DNA of 64,000 nucleotides. It comes from a virus. Lineage: Duplodnaviria > Caudoviricetes. Shown here in pieces: positions 1 through 59,675 of the stretch. Position 1 is the first letter of the stretch; the number at the start of each line of letters is the position of its first letter. Position numbers and translations under genes: made by a program. The stretch lies in IMG/VR virus record IMGVR_UViG_3300016265_001297, positions 11,864 through 75,863 of that record. The stretch is one strand, 5' to 3'. The notes under the pieces are model-generated. The model saw only the letters and a program-made list of their open reading frames with translations, ran no database searches and was not told where the DNA came from.

Positions 1-214
1 GAACACTATTAGTGCTTACCAAACTATCAATTCTATCATTAGAACAACCAGCCGCTATTATTTCTGCTGTTTTATTATCAAAAATTACAGCACCAGTTTT
101 AAACCTAGCAAAAGTTGATCGGCTAGATTGTTTTGCTGCCGCTTTCCAAATTTCATCGAACTGTCGCTCAGTAAATTTTTCTATATAAAAATCTTTAGGA
201 TAATTATTTAACAT
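1..214 (-). CDS. Cytidine/dCMP deaminase-like protein, N-terminal part (runs off window start)
   Basis: Hand translation MLNNYPKDF...SRSTFARFKTGAVIFDNKTAEIIAAGCSN resembles the S..r.kvGAVI.....IIa.G.N deaminase N-terminus; SD AAAGGA upstream; Zn ligands lie outside the window. Confidence 0.5.
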   Translation of the reverse strand, partial: MLNNYPKDFYIEKFTERQFDEIWKAAAKQSSRSTFARFKTGAVIFDNKTAEIIAAGCSNDRIDSLVSTNSV

Positions 215-9633: not shown

Positions 9634-10617
9634 TTGGCTAAAGGAAAAAAGACAGCAGAGATTTATGAAGAGGTAACTCAAAGAATTATTGATTCTTTGG
9701 AAAAGGGAATTATTCCGTGGAATAAACCGTGGGTTTCTATTGGAGGTCATAAGAATTATGTTTCTCAGAAACCTTATAGGGGAATAAATCCTTTCCTACT
9801 ACAAATCTCATCTATTGACAATGATTTTGTTTCACCCTTTTGGCTGACTTATAATCAGGCAAGCGAATTGTCTGTCAAAAAGTGGCTAAAGGATAATAAC
9901 CTTACAGACACAGATGATAATAGAGCAGCATATAAGAATGACGAAAATGGATACAAAGGTGTAAGGAAGGGCGAAAAGTCCACCACAATTATTTTCTGGA
10001 ATACATTTACTATCGAAGATAAGGATAACCGTGATGAAAATGGGAAGCCAGAGAAAAAGACAATTCCTTATCTAAAGTATATTTCTATTTTCAATACAGA
10101 TCAAACCGATCTTGGTATAGAAATTCCAGAAATTAGCGATAAACAATTTGACCCAATTGAGGAAGCACAATCCGTAATTGATGATTGGCCGGACAGACCA
10201 GAAATAAATCACGGAGGGGATATTGCTTCATACATTCCTTCATACGATCAGATTACTATGCCGCTTCCAGAAATGTTTGATAGTGAAAATTATTATTACA
10301 AAACTCTTTACCACGAAGCAATCCATTCTACTGGTCATAAAAGTAGGCTGAACAGAATCAAGGAATCGTCAGGATTTGGAAGCGACCCATATGCTAAGGA
10401 AGAATTGGTAGCAGAATTGGGAGCCGCTATTATGATGAATTATGTTGGAATCGAAACTCCAGAAACTGATAAAAATACAGAGGCATACATAAAAAGCTGG
10501 ATAAAGAGATTCAAGGAAGATTCTAAATTGATAATTTCAGCAGGGTCTAAGGCGCAGAAAGCAGCAGACTATATTATCGGCGCAGAAGATGAAACAGAAA
10601 CTGACGATAAGGGTTAG
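9634..10617 (+). CDS. ardC: ArdC-family ssDNA-binding antirestriction protein with zincin-like domain
   Basis: VTQRIIDSLEKGIIPWNKPW, YRGIN, GVRKGEKST, HEAIHSTGH..RL.R, YAKEELVAELGAA. Confidence 0.88.
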   Translation: MAKGKKTAEIYEEVTQRIIDSLEKGIIPWNKPWVSIGGHKNYVSQKPYRGINPFLLQISSIDNDFVSPFWLTYNQASELSVKKWLKDNNLTDTDDNRAAYKNDENGYKGVRKGEKSTTIIFWNTFTIEDKDNRDENGKPEKKTIPYLKYISIFNTDQTDLGIEIPEISDKQFDPIEEAQSVIDDWPDRPEINHGGDIASYIPSYDQITMPLPEMFDSENYYYKTLYHEAIHSTGHKSRLNRIKESSGFGSDPYAKEELVAELGAAIMMNYVGIETPETDKNTEAYIKSWIKRFKEDSKLIISAGSKAQKAADYIIGAEDETETDDKG

Positions 10618-20020: not shown

Positions 20021-20203
20021 GTGATAACTATTACAATCACAGAAGAAGAAGTAGAAGTAATCCAGAAGGCTATGTGGAAAGAAGAAGAAGAAATAGATTG
20101 GATTATTCAGAGTGAAAGATTCACTAACAAAGCAACAATAGAAGCACAAAAGGAAAAGAAAAAAATAAATAGCATTAGAAATAAAATCTGGCAAGCACAA
20201 TAA
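20021..20203 (+). CDS. Small coiled-coil protein (GTG start), last early gene
   Basis: TAGTAT -10 at 19949, leader hairpin, SD AGAAAGGA; ITITEEEVEVIQKAM. Confidence 0.6.
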   Translation: MITITITEEEVEVIQKAMWKEEEEIDWIIQSERFTNKATIEAQKEKKKINSIRNKIWQAQ

Positions 20204-20410
20204 AAAAAAGAAAAAATAAATCAGAAAGAAAAAAAGAAAATGAAAAAATAAATAATAAAAAAAATAAATAAGAAAAAAAATAAAAAGAAAAAAATAATAA
20301 TAAACATAAAACAAAACAGAAACAAACATAAACAACAACAAAGACTAACAGCAAACAGAAACACCTAACAACAATAAGAAAGAATAATAAGAAAGTGAAA
20401 GAATATATCT
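20204..20410. repeat. About 200-bp low-complexity A-tract region
   Basis: + strand mostly A, with sparse T/G then C. Confidence 0.9.
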
Positions 20411-20412
20411 GG

Positions 20413-20429
20413 CCCGCCCGCCCCCGCCC
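20413..20429 (-). other. G-quadruplex-forming motif GGG-C-GGGGG-C-GGG-C-GGG
   Basis: + strand reads CCCGCCCGCCCCCGCCC. Confidence 0.7.
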
Positions 20430-20465
20430 TGCCGCCATAGCCTACCACATTCTGAGCGTCCGTTG

Positions 20466-20481
20466 TGTGAGATTCGTCACA
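20466..20481. promoter_or_regulatory. Perfect CRP/GlxR-type box TGTGA-N6-TCACA
   Basis: TGTGAGATTCGTCACA; overlapped by inverted repeat TCACATA-N7-TATGTGA (20477-20497). Confidence 0.65.
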
Positions 20482-20550
20482 TAACGAATATATGTGAAAC
20501 TTACCGGACTCCTAACAGTTTCCTAACATTACTTTGATACTCTCTCCGGT

Positions 20551-20901
20551 ATGAAGTCCAACAGCGCAGAGAGCGCAGCCGGGAAGACCGGCCAACAGTC
20601 AGCCCGAAAGGGAAACAGCCGTCCCGCTCCGGTAATGAGGAAGCGGGGCAGGCCGAAGGGAAGTACCGATCAGTCCCGCGAGGCCGACCGCGCCGAGTTT
20701 CTGGCAGCGGTAGAGAAGGAGGCCGCGAAGGGTCCGGGGTGGATTGACGAGGCGGTAGAAGCCGTCCAGTCCAGCCGGGAAGGACGGGGCAAACCCCGGT
20801 ACACCGAGTCCAGCCTACGCCAGACGCTGACCGCCTGGGGTCGTGAGGCCGGGTTCACCATCCAGCGCCACGAAGAAGGTTGGGCCGCCGAGAAGCGGTA
20901 G
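20551..20901 (+). CDS. GC-rich, probably leaderless AT-hook DNA-binding protein
   Basis: RKRGRPKGS AT-hook; about two-thirds GC; TACTCT -10 ends 7 nt before the ATG; no SD. Confidence 0.7.
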   Translation: MKSNSAESAAGKTGQQSARKGNSRPAPVMRKRGRPKGSTDQSREADRAEFLAAVEKEAAKGPGWIDEAVEAVQSSREGRGKPRYTESSLRQTLTAWGREAGFTIQRHEEGWAAEKR

Positions 20902-20916
20902 CCCGTCCTCGACGGT

Positions 20917-20954
20917 GGGGTAGCGGTCGGGGTGGAAACGCTCCGGCCCTACCC
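20917..20954 (+). terminator. Long GC hairpin with GAAA tetraloop (no U-tract)
   Basis: GGGGTAG-C-GGTCGGGGTG-GAAA-CGCTCCGGCC-CTACCC, with three G-U pairs. Confidence 0.5.
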
Positions 20955-21264
20955 TATAGCTGTTCATAATTTGTCCCTGAAGTTTCGATATTTTCGTTAG
21001 TAGTTTTGATTCATTTGTGTTATAGGTGAAATCGCCCTATGTAAATAGCGGTTTGGCCCCTTAAAAAATGAGTTTTGCCTTTTAGCAAAGACCTATCTTT
21101 CTAGTGATTTACCCTATGTAAATATATATAATATACTAGGTTTTGAGTATTTTGTTAGTAGTTTTGTGTTAAGATGCTACTGTTTTTCTCAAAAATCGCC
21201 CTTAAAACTCTAAGCTTGTCACCATTTGGCTATGTAAATGCTTTATTTGGCTTATTATTGTCTA

Positions 21265-21346
21265 TGCTAGGGGTAGGAATCGAACCTACATAGCCTGCGG
21301 CGACAGATTTACAGTCTGCGGGACTCACCACCTGTCCAACCCTAGC
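21265..21346 (-). tRNA. tRNA-Tyr(GUA)
   Basis: GCTAGGG/CCCTAGC acceptor, CT-GTA-AA loop, long variable arm, GGTTCGATTCC. Confidence 0.92.
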
Positions 21347-23786: not shown

Positions 23787-24365
23787 TTAATACTTTGCTG
23801 GATGCCTAGCTACAAATCCGCTCTTATCTCCGCTTGTCTTGTGCCATCTTGGGCCTGACCCGCCAGTTCCAGAAGTATCAAATCTGATTCCCGCTACTTC
23901 TAAATAAGCGTGTCCTGAATGAGTATAAACGGTAATCCAATCTCCCTTGCCGCTACTTCCCCAACTCATAAATGAGCCGGAAGTTAAAGGAGAAGAAACA
24001 AAGTTTCCTCCATTTAGGGCATAGCTGATAGCGCCAGAACAATCATAGCCTTCTGACTCAAAAGAACCGTGACCTCCACCATAAATATATGGCTTATGCC
24101 TTATCCTGTTTCCTGCAGCAATAACCTTTTTAACTTTTGTAGGAGCAAGTGTAGGAGCAATTGCCTTGCCGTTGACTACACTAGCTTTATAATCTGACTT
24201 AGTAATCTTATCTCCGCATAGTGGAGCTAGAGTCAATCCACCGCTTTTTCCTAAACAAACTTTTTCGCTTGCATAAGAGTCTGCCACATTTAGCAAAATA
24301 ATAGTTGTTGCTATAAACGCAGCCAAAAATATTGCGACTTTAATTTTGATTCTAGAATTTCGCAT
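23787..24365 (-). CDS. Secreted NlpC/P60-family peptidoglycan endopeptidase
   Basis: Signal peptide; PYIYGGGH, YDCSGAISYAL, GHAYLEV. Confidence 0.85.
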   Translation of the reverse strand: MRNSRIKIKVAIFLAAFIATTIILLNVADSYASEKVCLGKSGGLTLAPLCGDKITKSDYKASVVNGKAIAPTLAPTKVKKVIAAGNRIRHKPYIYGGGHGSFESEGYDCSGAISYALNGGNFVSSPLTSGSFMSWGSSGKGDWITVYTHSGHAYLEVAGIRFDTSGTGGSGPRWHKTSGDKSGFVARHPAKY

Positions 24366-24923
24366 TTACGCACACCCCCACGGAGAAGTACCATACATGG
24401 CTAATAGCCTGTTTGCGACTTTCATCTGCTGTCGCCATGTGGCATAACCGGCATTACTTGGCATGCCCGGATACTTAAATCCTGACCATGTTCCGTACCA
24501 GAATCCAAGACCTCCTTGAAAGGTTGGTCCTGTATGTGACCAGTTGACTCCCATATAGCCGGAGCCGGGTTGCTCGCAAATACCAATTTTTATCCACAAA
24601 TCGTGATTGTCTGGAAGAATAGATTTTTTAATCTTTTTCCAGTTAGCCTTCATAATTGTTTTATGATTTGGACCTACTGCACACATTACAATATGCCGAT
24701 GCTTTTCTTTTGCTTTATCAGGAATAAAGTAAGCGCGTCTAAATTTTTCTGCCCAAATCTTGTGGCTTTTAGCATTATAAGATACACCTTTACAAGCCGG
24801 ATGAAGCTTAGGTTTGTTTGGCTCGTCTGTATCTAAATTTTCCCCCTCAAATCCAAAACCTTCTGAAACAAAAAGTACAGAAGTTACTGCAATGGTTATT
24901 ATGAGTGTTTTAATTAGATTCAT
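24366..24923 (-). CDS. Secreted Rpf-like (resuscitation-promoting factor) transglycosylase
   Basis: Signal peptide; W..I..CE, NW, GGLGF..GTW, ATWRQQMKVANRL, PWGC. Confidence 0.8.
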   Translation of the reverse strand: MNLIKTLIITIAVTSVLFVSEGFGFEGENLDTDEPNKPKLHPACKGVSYNAKSHKIWAEKFRRAYFIPDKAKEKHRHIVMCAVGPNHKTIMKANWKKIKKSILPDNHDLWIKIGICEQPGSGYMGVNWSHTGPTFQGGLGFWYGTWSGFKYPGMPSNAGYATWRQQMKVANRLLAMYGTSPWGCA

Positions 24924-25094
24924 ATACCAACCCAATCAACAGCCTTTTCGCTACGGGACTTCGCTATCTAGTTTGCATATCAACCAGCAGGGTAGTTCTG
25001 TTGATTATTCGGGGTTTTACCTCCTTTGTCGTGATTTACACATTTCTAATAATAGTATCAAACCTATTTGGCTTGATGTGTCAATTTGGCATTA

Positions 25095-28253: not shown

Positions 28254-28919
28254 ATGGCTGAAAACGGAAGATTACCAAAAAGCAGCTTGTCAAGAATTTA
28301 TCATCCGAATTACGATGTATATCTAGAGAAGGAAGCAGCAGCAGCATTTAACACACTTCGTTCTTGGTCTAAAAAATGGATGAAAGTTGATTTATATCCT
28401 ACTGGTCCACGATCTGCTTACAGAAGCTATGAAGAGCAGCAATATTTTTGGAACCTTTACCAAAGTGGACAGGGAAATCTAGCAGCCTACCCCGGCACTT
28501 CTAATCACGGTTGGGGTAATGCTATTGATTTAGCAGCTTGGTCAATGAAAGTTATTTTAGATCGTTTTGGCGCAAGAGTAGGTTGGAAAAAGACCGAAGC
28601 GTTTAGCGAGTGGTGGCATTATAATTATGTAGGCGGATTTGACAGGCCTAATCCCGGCCCTAGTGCTAGGTATCCAATTGCTAAAAGAGGGTCAGGAGGT
28701 TTTGGTCAAAAATGGTATGTAAAAAAACTAGAAAGGAGACTACGAAAACTAGGCTACAAAGTTAAGTCCGATGGAAACTTCGGAATTGTTACAAAGGGAG
28801 CAGTAGAAAACTTTCAAAAGAATAAAGGCCTAAAGGTTGACGGAATTGTTGGAAAGAAAACTTGGATGGCCTTAGAAAATGCTAACCCTAGAGCCTATAA
28901 GAAGAAATACAGAAAATGA
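28254..28919 (+). CDS. Endolysin: M15 (VanY-like) peptidase plus PG-binding domain
   Basis: SAYRSYEEQ, PGTSNHGWGNAIDL, EWWHY; DGNFG..T..AV..FQ...GL..DGIVG..TW. Confidence 0.88.
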   Translation: MAENGRLPKSSLSRIYHPNYDVYLEKEAAAAFNTLRSWSKKWMKVDLYPTGPRSAYRSYEEQQYFWNLYQSGQGNLAAYPGTSNHGWGNAIDLAAWSMKVILDRFGARVGWKKTEAFSEWWHYNYVGGFDRPNPGPSARYPIAKRGSGGFGQKWYVKKLERRLRKLGYKVKSDGNFGIVTKGAVENFQKNKGLKVDGIVGKKTWMALENANPRAYKKKYRK

Positions 28920-29617
28920 ATAATTTAAAATCAATTAGAAAACAGATTAGAAAGCTAAGGGCAAGGCGAGATAGACAGATTGCTCTTTATAAGCAGACTG
29001 CTAAAGCTGGTCACGGCAAAAAGGCGTTTAGTATCAGCAAAGAAATTAAACTTCTTAGGGGTAAACTATTAAGCTTGATTACGCCTAAAGATATTAGTCC
29101 AAAAGGAGTTAAGTTTATCTCTGATTGGGAAGGATTTTTGCCTAAGCCATATAATGACCCGGTTGGATATGCAACAGTTGGTTTTGGTTATCTTTTAGGA
29201 TACCGGCCAGTTCTTCCAGCAGACAAAAAAGCTATTTGGGTAAAAGGACAAAAAATTCCCGGACAGCTAACCAAAAAAGAAGGAAGAGATTTGCTAGCAA
29301 GTCAGCTAAAGAAAATTTATGAGCCTACTGTTAAAAAGTTATTTAGTAAAGGTGGCCCTCTATATGGAAAGTTTACTCAGAATAGATATGACGCTTTAGT
29401 TAGCTTTGCATATAACTTAGGTCCGGCCTCTTTAACAGGCATTCCCGGCTTTGAAACAATGGGAAGAGCAATCAAGTCAGGGGATATACAGGCTATTGGT
29501 GACGCAATGCTTTTATACGATAAAGCTGGTGGACAAGCTCTGCTAGGCTTAACAAGAAGAAGAAAAGCTGAAAGAAGGGTATTTTTGGACGGAAACTACT
29601 CTATTGACGATATTTAA
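28916..29617 (+). CDS. Endolysin: GH24 lysozyme with a cationic N-terminal extension
   Basis: WEGF...YNDPVGYATVGFG, YDALVSFAYNLG, GLTRRRKAER. Confidence 0.88.
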   Translation: MNNLKSIRKQIRKLRARRDRQIALYKQTAKAGHGKKAFSISKEIKLLRGKLLSLITPKDISPKGVKFISDWEGFLPKPYNDPVGYATVGFGYLLGYRPVLPADKKAIWVKGQKIPGQLTKKEGRDLLASQLKKIYEPTVKKLFSKGGPLYGKFTQNRYDALVSFAYNLGPASLTGIPGFETMGRAIKSGDIQAIGDAMLLYDKAGGQALLGLTRRRKAERRVFLDGNYSIDDI

Positions 29618-54307: not shown

Positions 54308-55956
54308 TGGCTAATTTACCAAGAAATCAAACTTTAACTAGTCTTTTAAAAAAGCAAGAACAAGATATTGCTGAATTAAAGCGTGGTCTTTTAAGAAGTG
54401 TATCTGGCACAGTAGGGCCAGCGGGTCCGGCAGGGCCGCAGGGTCCGGCAGGAGCCACGGGAGCAACTGGCGCTCAAGGTCCAGCAGGCCCATCAGGTGT
54501 TCAGGGTCCAGCAGGCCCATCAGGAAGTCAGGGTCCAGCAGGTCCACAAGGAGCAAGCGGAATAGGAGTTCCATCTAGCGGTTTAGAAGGTCAGATTTTA
54601 TCAAAAGCTAGTGATGCTGACTATGATTTTACTTGGATTGATAACTATGCTAGTGAATTAAGAGAAATTTGCAAAAATGATTCTGGTGTGCAGATTAATA
54701 AAGGCGAAGCTGTTATGGCTGTTGATGCAGTCGGTGACAGAATTAGAATTGCTAAAGCAGTCTCAGATGGCTCAGTTGATGCAAAATACTTTTTAGGAGT
54801 AGCGTCAGAAAACATAGCGAATGGAGCAGAAGGATATGTAACTCTTGTTGGCCCTTTAAAGGGTCTTAATACTTCTGCTTTTCCTTTAGGAACAGTTTTA
54901 TATATTGACCCTAATAATGCTGGTCAATTAACTAGCGCTACTCCAGTTGTTCCTGATATTGATTTGTCAATTGCTATTGTTACAAACTCTCATGCCTCTA
55001 ATGGAAGAATTTTTGTTCGTATGTGGTCGCAAGGACAAAAAGTTAGTGAGTTATATGATGTTAAATTAAGTTCTGTTCAAAACAATGATGTTTTAGTTTG
55101 GGATACAGCTAATTCTTATTGGAAAAATGTTCCTGCAACATTTGGCTCAAGCGGAGGGGCAAGCGTAACAGTATCAAGTGGTCCTCCTACAATATCAAGT
55201 TCTGGTGACTTGTGGTTCGACAGCGATAATGCAAATCTATATGTTTATTACGATAACTTTTGGGTTAATCCTGCGTCAATTGGCGCTGGAATTAAAACTT
55301 CTTCTGCTTCAACAATTACAGGCACAAATACAGAAGGTACATCTAATAACTTAGCAAGAGCAGATCATAATCATGCTTATGGGACAAAATCAATTCCTCA
55401 ATCAGCATTAGCTCTAGGCCCAACATATGAAACTGCTTTGCCTTCTGGCGCTGTTGACGGCCAAGAAATATATTACGCGGCTAGTTCTGCTTCTTCAGTT
55501 ATTTGGCATCTTAGGTACAGGTCTGCTGCAAGAAATAGTTCTGGAGCTTGGGAATATCTTGGAGGAAATTCATTAATGGACGGTCCTAAAGGAGAATTAT
55601 TAACTGCTTCTACAACCTATGTTGGCTTAACAAATGGGCCTAGCATAACAGTTCCAAGACAGGGAGCATATAGAATAACTCTTGGTTTAAAAATGAATTA
55701 TGAAAGGATTGGAGCAGATCAAAGTTTTGCTGGACAAGGTAATTCTTTTGGAATAAGTGTTAACAACGCAGACCCAGAGCTTTTTTCAACTCATGTATTT
55801 ATAGACAATTATGAATCTGAAAATATTTCAATAACAAAAGAGATTATTTATTCAACATCTAATTCTTTAACTATTAAATTTAAGAATGATCAGGCTAGTG
55901 AAGAGGTTAGATATAAAGAAGGCGTAATTCAGATTACTCCAGTTTATATTTACTAG
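54307..55956 (+). CDS. Collagen-repeat tail fibre
   Basis: GXY run near 54410-54560; C-terminal modules shared with the 35948 and 36682 ORFs. Confidence 0.8.
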   Translation: MANLPRNQTLTSLLKKQEQDIAELKRGLLRSVSGTVGPAGPAGPQGPAGATGATGAQGPAGPSGVQGPAGPSGSQGPAGPQGASGIGVPSSGLEGQILSKASDADYDFTWIDNYASELREICKNDSGVQINKGEAVMAVDAVGDRIRIAKAVSDGSVDAKYFLGVASENIANGAEGYVTLVGPLKGLNTSAFPLGTVLYIDPNNAGQLTSATPVVPDIDLSIAIVTNSHASNGRIFVRMWSQGQKVSELYDVKLSSVQNNDVLVWDTANSYWKNVPATFGSSGGASVTVSSGPPTISSSGDLWFDSDNANLYVYYDNFWVNPASIGAGIKTSSASTITGTNTEGTSNNLARADHNHAYGTKSIPQSALALGPTYETALPSGAVDGQEIYYAASSASSVIWHLRYRSAARNSSGAWEYLGGNSLMDGPKGELLTASTTYVGLTNGPSITVPRQGAYRITLGLKMNYERIGADQSFAGQGNSFGISVNNADPELFSTHVFIDNYESENISITKEIIYSTSNSLTIKFKNDQASEEVRYKEGVIQITPVYIY

Positions 55957-57640: not shown

Positions 57641-58726
57641 TTATAAAGTCTCTACCTTTGAGTTTTCGCCCAAAACAAAACTTAGTGTTTTTGGTGGCCT
57701 ATTCTTTTTATAAATTTTAACTTTTTTGCCTATAAGACTTGCTTCGATTCTGTCTTGTATATTTTCAATTGAAGAGCCTGCTAGAACAATAGAGTATTCT
57801 ATCTCACTATTTTTAATAAGAACATTTTTATCAATAGCGGTATTAGGCCCGACATATGAATCAATTATAGTTGAATTTTTTCCAATAATTGCTGGACCGC
57901 GAATTGTCGAATTAACTATCTTTGCTCCGTCCTCAATTATAACATTGCCATCAACTTTTGAGTCAATTATTTCTCCAATAATGTTTCTTTTTGCAGAATC
58001 TAAAACTAGCCTGTTGGCTTGCAGCATTTCTTCTACACTTCCTGTGTCTTTCCACCATCCGTCAACAATTTTATATTCTACATTTAAATTATCTTTTATC
58101 ATAGTCTGAATAGCTTCTGTTATTTCAAGCTCGCCACGCTTAGAAGGCACAAGAGAGTTAGCTGCAGCAAAAATTTTATTAGTAAAAATATATACTCCAA
58201 CTAGGGCTAAATTTGATTTCGGCTCCGCTGGTTTTTCTTCAAGGCTTTTAATATTATTCCCGTCTAATTCTGCAATCCCATATGATGATGGGTCTTCTAC
58301 TTCTGTCAATAAAATTATTGAATCTGCTTTTGACTCGTTAATAAAATAACTAACTAAATCAGTTATTCCATCGCGGAGAATATTGTCTCCAAGATACATA
58401 ACAAAATCAGAATTTCCAATAAAATCTCTAGCGGTTAAAACTGCATGAGCTAAACCTTTTGGCTGCTGTTGTAGAATGTAAGTTACTTCTGCCCCAAACT
58501 CGCTTCCATTTCCTACACTCTCTTTAATTTCTTCTCCTGTATTTGGAGCAATGATTATGCCTATTTCTGTTATGCCTGCTTCGACTAAAGCCTCTATTCC
58601 ATAATTAATTACCGGTTTATTGGCTACTGGAACTAGTTGCTTTGCAGATGTATGTGTTAAAGGCCTTAGCCTTGTGCCTGCTCCGCCAGAAAGAATTAGT
58701 CCCTTAATGTTTGTATTGTCTTCCAT
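57641..58726 (-). CDS. rmlA: Glucose-1-phosphate thymidylyltransferase (long form)
   Basis: GGAGTRLRPLT...KQLVPVANKP, QQPKGLAHA, GDN, EKP, RGELEIT, WWKDTG. Confidence 0.92.
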   Translation of the reverse strand: MEDNTNIKGLILSGGAGTRLRPLTHTSAKQLVPVANKPVINYGIEALVEAGITEIGIIIAPNTGEEIKESVGNGSEFGAEVTYILQQQPKGLAHAVLTARDFIGNSDFVMYLGDNILRDGITDLVSYFINESKADSIILLTEVEDPSSYGIAELDGNNIKSLEEKPAEPKSNLALVGVYIFTNKIFAAANSLVPSKRGELEITEAIQTMIKDNLNVEYKIVDGWWKDTGSVEEMLQANRLVLDSAKRNIIGEIIDSKVDGNVIIEDGAKIVNSTIRGPAIIGKNSTIIDSYVGPNTAIDKNVLIKNSEIEYSIVLAGSSIENIQDRIEASLIGKKVKIYKKNRPPKTLSFVLGENSKVETL

Positions 58727-59675
58727 AATATTCAAAATATTCTTCGTTTAAAAGTTTTTGCCACCAATCTTTATTTTGTGCATACCAGTCAACAGTAATA
58801 TCTATTCCATGTGCAAACTGATATTTTGGTTGCCATCCAAGCTCCATTATTTTATCAGAATTTAACGAATATCTTGTATCGTGACCAAGCCTGTCTTGCA
58901 CAAAAGTTATTAGGCTTCTTGGTTTGTCTAAAATATCTAAGATAGCCTCAATAACTTCTATGTTGCACAATTCTTCTGGACCGCCTGCATTATAAACTTC
59001 TCCTGCTTTTCCATAACTCAAAGCAGTGTCAATCGCAGCGCAAAAATCTTCAACATAAATCCAGTTTCTAACCTGATTTCCTTTTCCGTAAACTGGTATT
59101 GGTCTATCGCTTAGTGCGTTAATTGTTGTTAAAGGAATTAATTTTTCTGGATATTGATTTGGGCCATAATTATTTGAGCCTCTAATTATTAAAGAATCAA
59201 GCCCATAAGTTTTATAATAAGAATAAACAAGCATATCTCCGCCAGTTTTAGAAGCAGAATATGGAGAAGAAGGCTGAATGGGGGATTGTTCAGTGAATGA
59301 ACCTTCATCAATTGAACCATAAACTTCATCAGTAGATATTTGCAAGTATCTTATGTTTCGTTCTTTTGCTATCTCCAATAGCTTAAATGTTCCTAACACA
59401 TCTGTTTTAATAAACTGTTCAGGTTCAGTAATTGATCTATCAACATGTGTTTCTGCTGCAAAGTTGACTATTGCATCAAAATCAATACCCCTTAAGCTTG
59501 TGTCACAAATATCTCCCAAGATAAAGTTTACCCTTTTATCTTCTGGAAGATTTTCTAAGTTTCCAGCGTAAGTCAGCTTATCCAGAACAATAATCTTTTC
59601 GTCTGAATTAGCTAACTTATACTTTATAAAATTTGAGCCTATAAACCCGGCTGCACCAGTTACTAGTAAAGCCAT
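58704..59675 (-). CDS. rmlB: dTDP-glucose 4,6-dehydratase
   Basis: GAAGFIGS, DKLTYAGN, AAETHVDRS, STDEVYG, YSASK, NNYGP.QYPEK. Confidence 0.93.
   Translation of the reverse strand: MALLVTGAAGFIGSNFIKYKLANSDEKIIVLDKLTYAGNLENLPEDKRVNFILGDICDTSLRGIDFDAIVNFAAETHVDRSITEPEQFIKTDVLGTFKLLEIAKERNIRYLQISTDEVYGSIDEGSFTEQSPIQPSSPYSASKTGGDMLVYSYYKTYGLDSLIIRGSNNYGPNQYPEKLIPLTTINALSDRPIPVYGKGNQVRNWIYVEDFCAAIDTALSYGKAGEVYNAGGPEELCNIEVIEAILDILDKPRSLITFVQDRLGHDTRYSLNSDKIMELGWQPKYQFAHGIDITVDWYAQNKDWWQKLLNEEYFEYYGRQYKH

Follow-up and report, generated by a model that had tools for sequence, protein, structure and literature searches.

A GC-rich, moron-like candidate regulator cassette in an uncultured AT-rich tailed phage

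A GC-rich island and its single gene

The stretch of DNA analysed here (the window) comprises 64,000 nucleotides of a 75.8-kb IMG/VR virus record (IMGVR_UViG_3300016265_001297, a tailed phage of the Caudoviricetes) with an estimated completeness of ~70%, and it contains at positions 20411–20955 an island of GC-rich DNA that encodes a protein of 116 amino acids. The GC content is 63.3% in the island and 66.4% in the open reading frame (ORF), compared with 37.4% in the window as a whole. In segments of 300 nt the GC fraction peaks at 0.69 within the island, while the remainder of the window has a mean of 0.372 (standard deviation 0.045) and a maximum of 0.55. The peak is therefore ~7 standard deviations above the mean of the remaining window, which is the kind of GC deviation included in the definition of phage morons. 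These values bear out an earlier interpretation made without database searches (the sequence-only reading), in which an island of ~550 bp with two-thirds GC was described. The island is located where a set of rightward early genes, extending to 20203, meets a leftward block that starts with a tRNA-Tyr gene (21265–21346). The features of the locus are listed below, where L002 denotes a related metagenome contig and predicted elements are included.

20150–20410, plus strand: A-rich, T-poor tract (A 69%, T 12% over 261 nt; AT skew 0.63–0.68)
20411–20440, minus strand: C-run at the left end of the island, with a canonical G-quadruplex motif at 20413–20429 (four G-tracts, 1-nt loops)
20466–20481: TGTGA-N6-TCACA palindrome (TGTGAGATTCGTCACA), the CRP-family consensus core, with all 16 nt identical in L002 (box 1)
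20493–20508: decayed second box, 27 bp after box 1, in which the left TGTGA half-site survives
20535–20543, plus strand: predicted extended -10 element, TG-n-TACTCT (TG-A-TACTCT), ending 7 nt before the ATG at 20551
20551–20901, plus strand: gene of the 116-residue protein, with a disordered basic tail (residues 1–30), a GRPKGS arm (33–38) and a predicted winged-helix domain (38–116)
20911–20964, plus strand: strong GC hairpin directly after the stop codon, without a U-tract
20965–21264: AT-rich non-coding block that separates the island from tRNA-Tyr and is conserved in L002 (750–1050)

L002 is an independent contig of 2.2 kb that encodes a homologue of the island protein (P0002) and whose sequence is diverged from that of the window. 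It has the parts of the locus in the same order, namely an A/T-rich tract, a C-run, two full boxes, a -10 element, an ATG, a GC-rich ORF (up to 73% GC) and a hairpin, and these lie between the same AT-rich flanks. The AT-rich phage sequence downstream of the hairpin is shared by both loci, and the gene farther downstream differs, being RmlD-like in L002 and tRNA-Tyr in the window. The nucleotide identity between the two is ~90% in the non-coding parts and ~55% in the ORF. The intergenic region of ~1.1 kb is conserved in blocks, and the phage backbone beside the island is ~69% identical over 333 nt. On this sequence comparison the island is neither a chimera nor host contamination, because two diverged sequences share identical junctions on both sides. 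The island synteny that the sequence-only reading had proposed to look for is thus found, and the contamination or chimerism that it had named as fatal to its proposal is contradicted by the L002 junctions.

The predicted 116-residue ORF with its RKRGRPKGS motif is present, and comparison with its relatives indicates that it is a real protein-coding gene under purifying selection. When 1.84 billion representative proteins were searched exhaustively with HMMER, two homologues emerged, P0002 (133 residues, E 1.6e-11) and P0003 (104 residues, E 1.7e-8). There are 32 invariant columns among the three proteins, including GRPKGS and a block spanning the second and third helices. P0004, a 97%-identical cluster mate of P0002, differs from it at four positions, all of them in the N-terminal tail. 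Between the ORFs of the window and L002, dN is 0.43–0.54 and dS is 1.4–1.5 (saturated), giving a dN/dS of ~0.3, and different codons are used at 32 of the 55 identical residues. In the called frame GC3 exceeds GC1, which exceeds GC2. Two short stretches are identical at every base in the two loci, G-R-P-K-G (20643–20657, 15 nt) and R-Q-T-L (20809–20820, 12 nt), in contrast to most other shared residues, for which the codons differ; this identity may reflect a constraint at the nucleotide level.

We consider it extremely improbable that the locus is an artefact, that is, an assembly chimera, host contamination or an ORF that is open merely as a result of the scarcity of stop codons in GC-rich DNA. 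The record is a metagenome assembly, and GC-rich DNA does contain chance ORFs, as illustrated by antisense ORFs of 63 and 50 residues that are also open in the island. However, the same island occurs between the same flanks in an independent, diverged contig, purifying selection and conserved motifs extend across three protein clusters, and the called frame has the codon-position order of GC content given above.

The protein family is seen on metagenome contigs only, and the two members with readable DNA reside in AT-rich phage DNA. A second, profile-based search of 5.8 billion proteins yielded no further members, and none was found in IMG/VR, in one genome from each of ~185,000 species (scanned with a protein pattern) or in 301 Thermoleophilia genomes. 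Ten weak profile matches in the Thermoleophilia genomes were false, since five of the eight that were translated are adenosine deaminase and none has the family motifs. The designation of the island as 'host-like' can therefore not be substantiated, given the absence of the family from both sets of cellular genomes. Searches of Pfam (E up to 10), PHROGs, NCBIfam, PADLOC and PDB sequences gave nothing usable for the island protein, the only rows being at chance level (a PHROG at E 0.6, antibody light chains, and EspG for one homologue). The family therefore consists of three clusters among billions of sequences, is without annotation and was previously undescribed. At the DNA level, nothing similar was found in the phages collection, and scans of IMG/VR with four conserved DNA motifs and the protein profile either remained empty or gave matches at chance level in phages that are unrelated and for the most part GC-rich. 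No syntenic relatives were found by way of the neighbouring 94-residue protein and ThyX. Known large phage RNAs such as GOLLD and ROOL were also considered; Rfam at E up to 10 returned tRNA-Tyr only, so that the island does not belong to this class.

Candidate operator boxes, predicted start and flanking structures

CRP- and GlxR-dependent promoters of Actinobacteria and Proteobacteria have TGTGA-N6-TCACA upstream. The perfect box of this type that had been noted ~77 bp upstream of the ATG has its centre 77.5 nt before that codon, and the exact pattern is unique in the 75.8-kb record, where ~0.07 occurrences per 64 kb are expected from base composition. In L002, box 1 is followed 28 bp farther downstream by another complete box. 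The previously noted inverted repeat TCACATA (20477–20483)/TATGTGA (20491–20497) is present, and it arises because the right half of box 1 is followed by the surviving left half of the decayed box 2. Tandem copies of CCTAACA, also pointed out before, are present at 20511–20517 and 20522–20528 but are not conserved in L002. Since box 1 is conserved, it is probably functional. A CRP-family protein is the most likely candidate for its binder, because by simple arithmetic only ~1 in 1000 conserved palindromes of the 5+5 type would match the CRP core by chance. No CRP-type helix-turn-helix (HTH) was found in the phage record, while one is present in all 16 of 16 genomes of the only candidate host family (Miltoncostaeaceae), in which the exact box occurs 8 times versus 2 for a control pattern.

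The main rival on the identity of the box binder is that the boxes are the operators of the island protein itself, such that a winged-helix dimer sets its own level. The gene and the boxes are conserved together in both loci, and the recognition helix is invariant in three homologues, which implies that they recognize a common DNA sequence. In other respects the cassette is complete in itself, and many small phage regulators behave in this manner. Winged-helix proteins also commonly bind palindromes with an 11-bp spacing of half-sites. Against autoregulation, all three complete boxes match the CRP core exactly, which would then be the coincidence of roughly 1 in 1000 calculated above, and the boxes are positioned upstream of the predicted promoter without overlapping it. 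In addition, the spacers of the boxes and the greater part of their flanks lack AT-richness, which leaves no obvious minor-groove target for the GRP arm. We therefore regard autoregulation as unlikely, though it merits serious consideration, and a host CRP-family protein remains the preferred binder.

Leaderless regulator mRNAs are exemplified by lambda cI transcribed from PRM, and leaderless genes are abundant in Actinobacteria. The -10 element of the island, which had been described as ending 7 nt before an ATG that lacks a Shine–Dalgarno (SD) sequence, has this geometry conserved to the nucleotide in L002, where its counterpart TG-n-TATAGT also ends exactly 7 nt before the ATG (shared pattern TGnTAnnnT). 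In both copies the bases between the -10 element and the ATG are pyrimidine-rich without an SD sequence, and the first 12–13 nt of both predicted mRNAs are unpaired. Both copies therefore have the arrangement of leaderless genes, a -10 element 6–8 nt before the ATG and no SD sequence, and transcription would be expected to start at the AUG or immediately beside it.

Distinctive structures are located at both ends of the island. The motif at 20413–20429 has four tracts of at least three G residues separated by loops within the range of 1–7 nt, as expected of a predicted G-quadruplex, and it is one of two such motifs (G3+N1-7 x4, either strand) in the 64-kb window. All G-tracts are retained in L002; both substitutions within the 17-nt motif are in loops and a third is in the flank of the 26-nt C-run. 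The other G-quadruplex-type motif of the window (54415–54443, plus strand) is located within a gene of the tail region, and its loops are longer. At the right end, the strong GC hairpins that had been reported after the ORF are confirmed, with a folding energy of -50.7 kcal/mol (z = -4.8) for 20880–20975, a segment of 96 nt that includes a small upstream hairpin, and none of 200 shuffled sequences was as stable. The stem is kept in L002, with 18 predicted pairs, one of which is changed on both sides and two on one side (G-U/G-C). There is no T-run on either strand, and a simple terminator scan made no call, consistent with the absence of the U-tract of an intrinsic terminator. The left G-quadruplex motif and the right hairpin bracket the unit and probably shield it from the two converging phage transcripts.

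The A-rich tract forms the end of the rightward early gene block and abuts the island, and L002 has an A/T-rich counterpart in the corresponding position (A 62%). Conceivably, the tract functions as a rut-like, DNA-unwinding or bent element. On the other side of the island, the AT-rich block at 20965–21264 has stretches of perfect identity with L002 and contains repeats, with three copies of CTATGTAAAT (at 21037, 21114 and 21230), two of AAATCGCCCT and two of GTTAGTAGTTTTG. Promoter-like sites face each other in both loci (in the window, plus strand 21108–21137 and minus strand 21158–21130). Possible identities for this block are a small RNA gene, an array of iterons and a regulatory hub. A minus-strand ORF (20175–20438; about 20–150, minus strand, in L002) starts at a conserved ATG within the left end of the island (MAAG.GRAGQI...) and extends into the T-rich strand, where it encodes a very hydrophobic peptide rich in F, L and I (87 residues in the window, ~43 in L002). 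The ORF is probably open only because that strand is nearly devoid of A and hence lacks stop codons, although a small membrane peptide is also conceivable.

These elements also raise the possibility that the locus is a landmark for replication or packaging, in which the A-tract, the G-quadruplex motif, the CTATGTAAAT and AAATCGCC repeats and a DNA-binding protein together constitute an origin or cis-acting site. The block-wise conservation of the ~1.1-kb intergenic region with its direct repeats and A-rich tract is in agreement with such a role, the cumulative GC skew turns at the island, and ORC/Cdc6-type winged helices are among the weak fold matches of the protein. However, the turn in GC skew coincides with the change in gene orientation and is not independent evidence, known iteron initiators are far larger than a protein of 116 residues with one winged helix, the adjacent genes include none for replication, and the repeats are supported by two sequences only. 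A landmark of this type thus seems very doubtful.

Predicted fold of the island protein and the anti-silencing proposal

The structure of the island protein was predicted by AlphaFold2 (AF2) using the three-sequence alignment. The model has a disordered N-terminus followed by three helices (residues 38–58, 66–78 and 86–100) and a beta-hairpin (strands 102–106 and 111–115), with pLDDT values of 81–91 over residues 41–116. Three helices followed by a beta-hairpin wing is the layout of a winged-helix domain, and the helical C-terminal domain anticipated by the sequence-only reading is in accordance with this model. The best structural match is the X domain of MutYX (PDB 8uuc; Z 7.0, rmsd 3.7 A over 72 residues, 21% identity), which consists of three antiparallel helices and short strands, contacts DNA, and resembles domains of LmrR, TFIIIC and cullin (PMC12631127). 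Further matches are to LmrR/PadR, to the winged helices of ORC and cullin, and to phage HTH proteins, and all of the matches are weak and of winged-helix type. The recognition helix is invariant in all three homologues at Y84, T85, S87, L89, Q91, T92 and L93.

Residues 30–38 of the window protein (RKRGRPKGS) include the R-G-R-P core and basic flanks of an AT-hook, and in this respect the designation of the gene as encoding an AT-hook protein is correct for this copy. However, the homologues have PGRPKGS and AGRPKGS, so that only G-R-P-K-G-S is invariant and the first Arg of the hook core is not conserved. The conserved part is thus a GRP arm placed immediately ahead of a winged helix in which the recognition helix is invariant, and analogy with the DNA-binding domains of Hin and resolvase suggests a site-specific binder with a minor-groove arm, and the coating of AT-rich DNA that had been proposed fits less well. 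An excisionase or other recombination factor is unlikely, as no integrase or resolvase was found in the phage record; the same is true of WhiB.

Whether the protein could function against host silencing depends in part on the host. No close cultured relatives of the phage were found, and its capsid protein has matches at ~25% identity in phages of Arthrobacter, Lactobacillus and Clostridium. An Rpf-like domain scores 25.8 bits, against a Pfam cut-off of 27 bits, and matches actinophage proteins. The closest cellular relative of the RmlA-like protein is encoded by a metagenome-assembled genome of Miltoncostaeaceae (Thermoleophilia, Lake Mendota; 59% identity), in a 2-kb locus with 71% GC, followed by Streptomyces (55%). 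These similarities give a weak indication of a high-GC actinobacterial host. The RmlA-like gene of the window (57641–58735) is 37 kb from the island, and the RmlD-like reductase gene of L002 (1049–1879, minus strand) is beside the junction. Other genes of the window include, in the early region, one for an ArdC-like anti-restriction N-terminal domain fused to a zincin metallopeptidase (9634–10617; Pfam E ~3e-33 for each), and adjacent lysis enzymes at 28254–29617, a VanY-type peptidase with a PG_binding_1 domain and a phage lysozyme, which are separate from an Rpf-like/NlpC pair at 23787–24935.

The sequence-only reading leads to a model in which an immediate-early, cAMP-gated AT-hook protein coats the AT-rich genome or displaces an Lsr2-type silencer, and in which the cassette, being GC-rich, is spared from silencing. 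In Actinobacteria, AT-rich DNA of foreign origin is the target of Lsr2-type proteins, which are also of importance when actinophages infect (PMC7002338, PMC10066036, PMC8612146); this, together with the faint signs of a high-GC actinobacterial host, is in favour of this model, as are the RKRGRPKGS motif of the window copy, the avoidance in the island of codons served by the phage tRNAs, and the persistence of a GC-rich cassette under selection. On the other hand, the first Arg of R-G-R-P is replaced in the relatives, there is a single arm and no oligomerization domain, and a winged helix with an invariant recognition helix is typical of site-specific binders. The Lsr2 domain (PF11774) was found neither in the phage record nor in the 16 Miltoncostaeaceae genomes, and the island protein itself has no Pfam match that would place it by sequence with Lsr2 or H-NS. 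If phages of this kind infect Miltoncostaeaceae, then Lsr2-type silencing may not be applicable. We consider the model quite unlikely, with cAMP gating and counter-silencing as its hypothetical components against which some of these features speak.

Persistent GC-richness, the proposed cassette and known systems

The GC3 of the island gene is 0.76 in the window and 0.83 in L002, compared with 0.26–0.38 in neighbouring phage genes. Because synonymous divergence at saturation (dS ~1.5) should have erased this difference under neutral drift, the base composition appears to be kept by selection rather than being left over from a recent import. Codon choice is also distinct. The phage encodes tRNAs for Lys (UUU), Glu (UUC) and Leu (CAA), and the island avoids the codons that they read, with AAG:AAA at 8:1 versus 59:64 in phage genes and GAG:GAA at 9:4 versus 40:113, in line with the earlier suggestion of a gene that does not need the phage tRNAs. 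Selection for an unusually folded mRNA was considered and is inconsistent between the copies (z = -4.2 in the window, largely due to the terminal hairpin, and -1.3 in L002).

The GC-richness could alternatively have been renewed from outside, if recombination through the conserved flanks had brought the gene into each phage, by acquisition or exchange, from a GC-rich pool that is unsampled. Such exchange is consistent with non-coding ends that are far more similar than the ORF, with the deviant GC that morons typically derive from horizontal transfer (PMC3594210), and with the structural neighbours of the protein in the ESM Atlas, which are mostly small Actinomycetota proteins. It is difficult to reconcile with the absence of any family member from bacterial genomes or GC-rich phages (1.84 billion representatives, ~185,000 species genomes, IMG/VR and 301 Thermoleophilia genomes), and since the adjacent backbone is itself diverged (~69% identity over 333 nt), most of what separates the two ORFs is accounted for by ordinary vertical divergence. 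On balance, import from such a pool seems improbable to us. We give still less credence to the idea that GC-richness is in itself adaptive, in that a host-mimicking island escapes silencing or defence directed at AT-rich DNA, is translated leaderless with host codons before the phage tRNAs are available, and senses metabolism through the CRP site, with a product that opens or organizes the AT-rich genome.

We propose instead, with somewhat more belief than doubt, that the island is an inherited, self-contained, moron-like regulator cassette of an uncultured lineage of AT-rich tailed phages, with a leaderless gene, a CRP-type operator and a GC content kept by selection. The cassette would constitute its own transcription unit at the point where the rightward early genes meet the leftward block. 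Its gene would be read from the extended -10 element as a leaderless mRNA, with one or two upstream operators most likely bound by a CRP-family regulator of the host. The protein would combine a variable, disordered basic tail and a GRPKGS arm placed in the minor groove with a winged helix bearing the invariant recognition helix. Its most likely role is that of an architectural factor or a sequence-specific regulator that works on phage DNA. Selection would keep the unit GC-rich.

Several points weigh against this proposal. Only two loci, the window and L002, are comparable at the DNA level, and no relative without the island was found in IMG/VR, the sole relative, L002, carrying it, so that insertion, the classic mark of a moron, would be a presumption. 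The box centres, at -77.5 in the window and at -68.5 and -96.5 in L002, have no common helical phase and, relative to the predicted start, are off the class I and class II CRP positions (about -41.5, -61.5, -72.5, -82.5 and -92.5); classical class I CRP activation is not evident from these positions. Termination at a hairpin that lacks a U-tract is not assured. The structural matches of the protein are weak (Z of 7.0 or less, Foldseek E of at least 0.03), a Z of 7 being in the common range of the tool. The actinobacterial assignment, which draws on a sub-threshold Rpf-like domain and on RmlA similarity, is weak, and repeated replacement from an unsampled GC-rich pool could also be the source of the persistent GC.

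The deviant GC of a phage gene is normally taken as a sign of recent import that fades with time. Here, two distant phages hold a GC3 of ~0.8 amid values of ~0.3 in spite of saturated synonymous sites, which suggests selection on the composition or the codons of one regulatory gene. The cassette is also a compact, clonable test case for how an AT-rich phage brings a first gene to expression in a possibly GC-rich host and for how it might sense host physiology.

In its probable mode of action the cassette can be likened to CRP promoters, to leaderless regulator genes and to DNA-binding proteins that combine an arm with an HTH, although by sequence it is a member of none of these. Morons are defined by their own promoter and terminator and by deviant GC (PMC3594210). 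The cassette resembles those of the HK97/HK022 type in being a single gene of deviant GC located between gene blocks, with its own predicted promoter (the extended -10 element) and hairpin, which are conserved in two loci, the hairpin lacking a U-tract. Unlike morons, it is conserved in two distant relatives with no relative lacking it found, its deviation in GC has lasted through saturated synonymous divergence, and it resides in a phage that has no detected integrase and looks lytic, rather than being a prophage fitness gene of a repressed lysogen. With the CRP/GlxR promoters it shares a perfect TGTGA-N6-TCACA upstream of a predicted promoter. It differs from them in that its sites, which are predicted only, are in tandem 27–28 bp apart and lie at a distance from the promoter that varies between the two copies and is off the class I phase. 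As with lambda cI at PRM and leaderless actinobacterial genes, the -10 element is 7 nt before an ATG without an SD sequence, and the product is a small DNA-binding regulator by prediction.

The closest parallels to the protein are found in domains to which it has no detectable relationship in sequence. It resembles the MutYX X domain, its best structural match, in having three helices and short strands, but the X domain recognizes 8-oxoG and forms the C-terminal part of a glycosylase. The placement of a Gly-Arg-Pro arm, flanked by basic residues, just before a helical DNA-binding domain recalls the DNA-binding domains of Hin and resolvase and the HMGA-type AT-hooks, for which Feng et al. 1994 and Aravind and Landsman 1998 are said to be the sources, and the RGRPKGS of the window copy matches the HMGA hook core. 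Searches of Pfam, NCBIfam and PDB sequences revealed no homology to either. The island protein further differs in having a predicted winged helix rather than a three-helix, homeodomain-like HTH, a single arm and no catalytic domain, and the first Arg of the hook is not conserved across the family.

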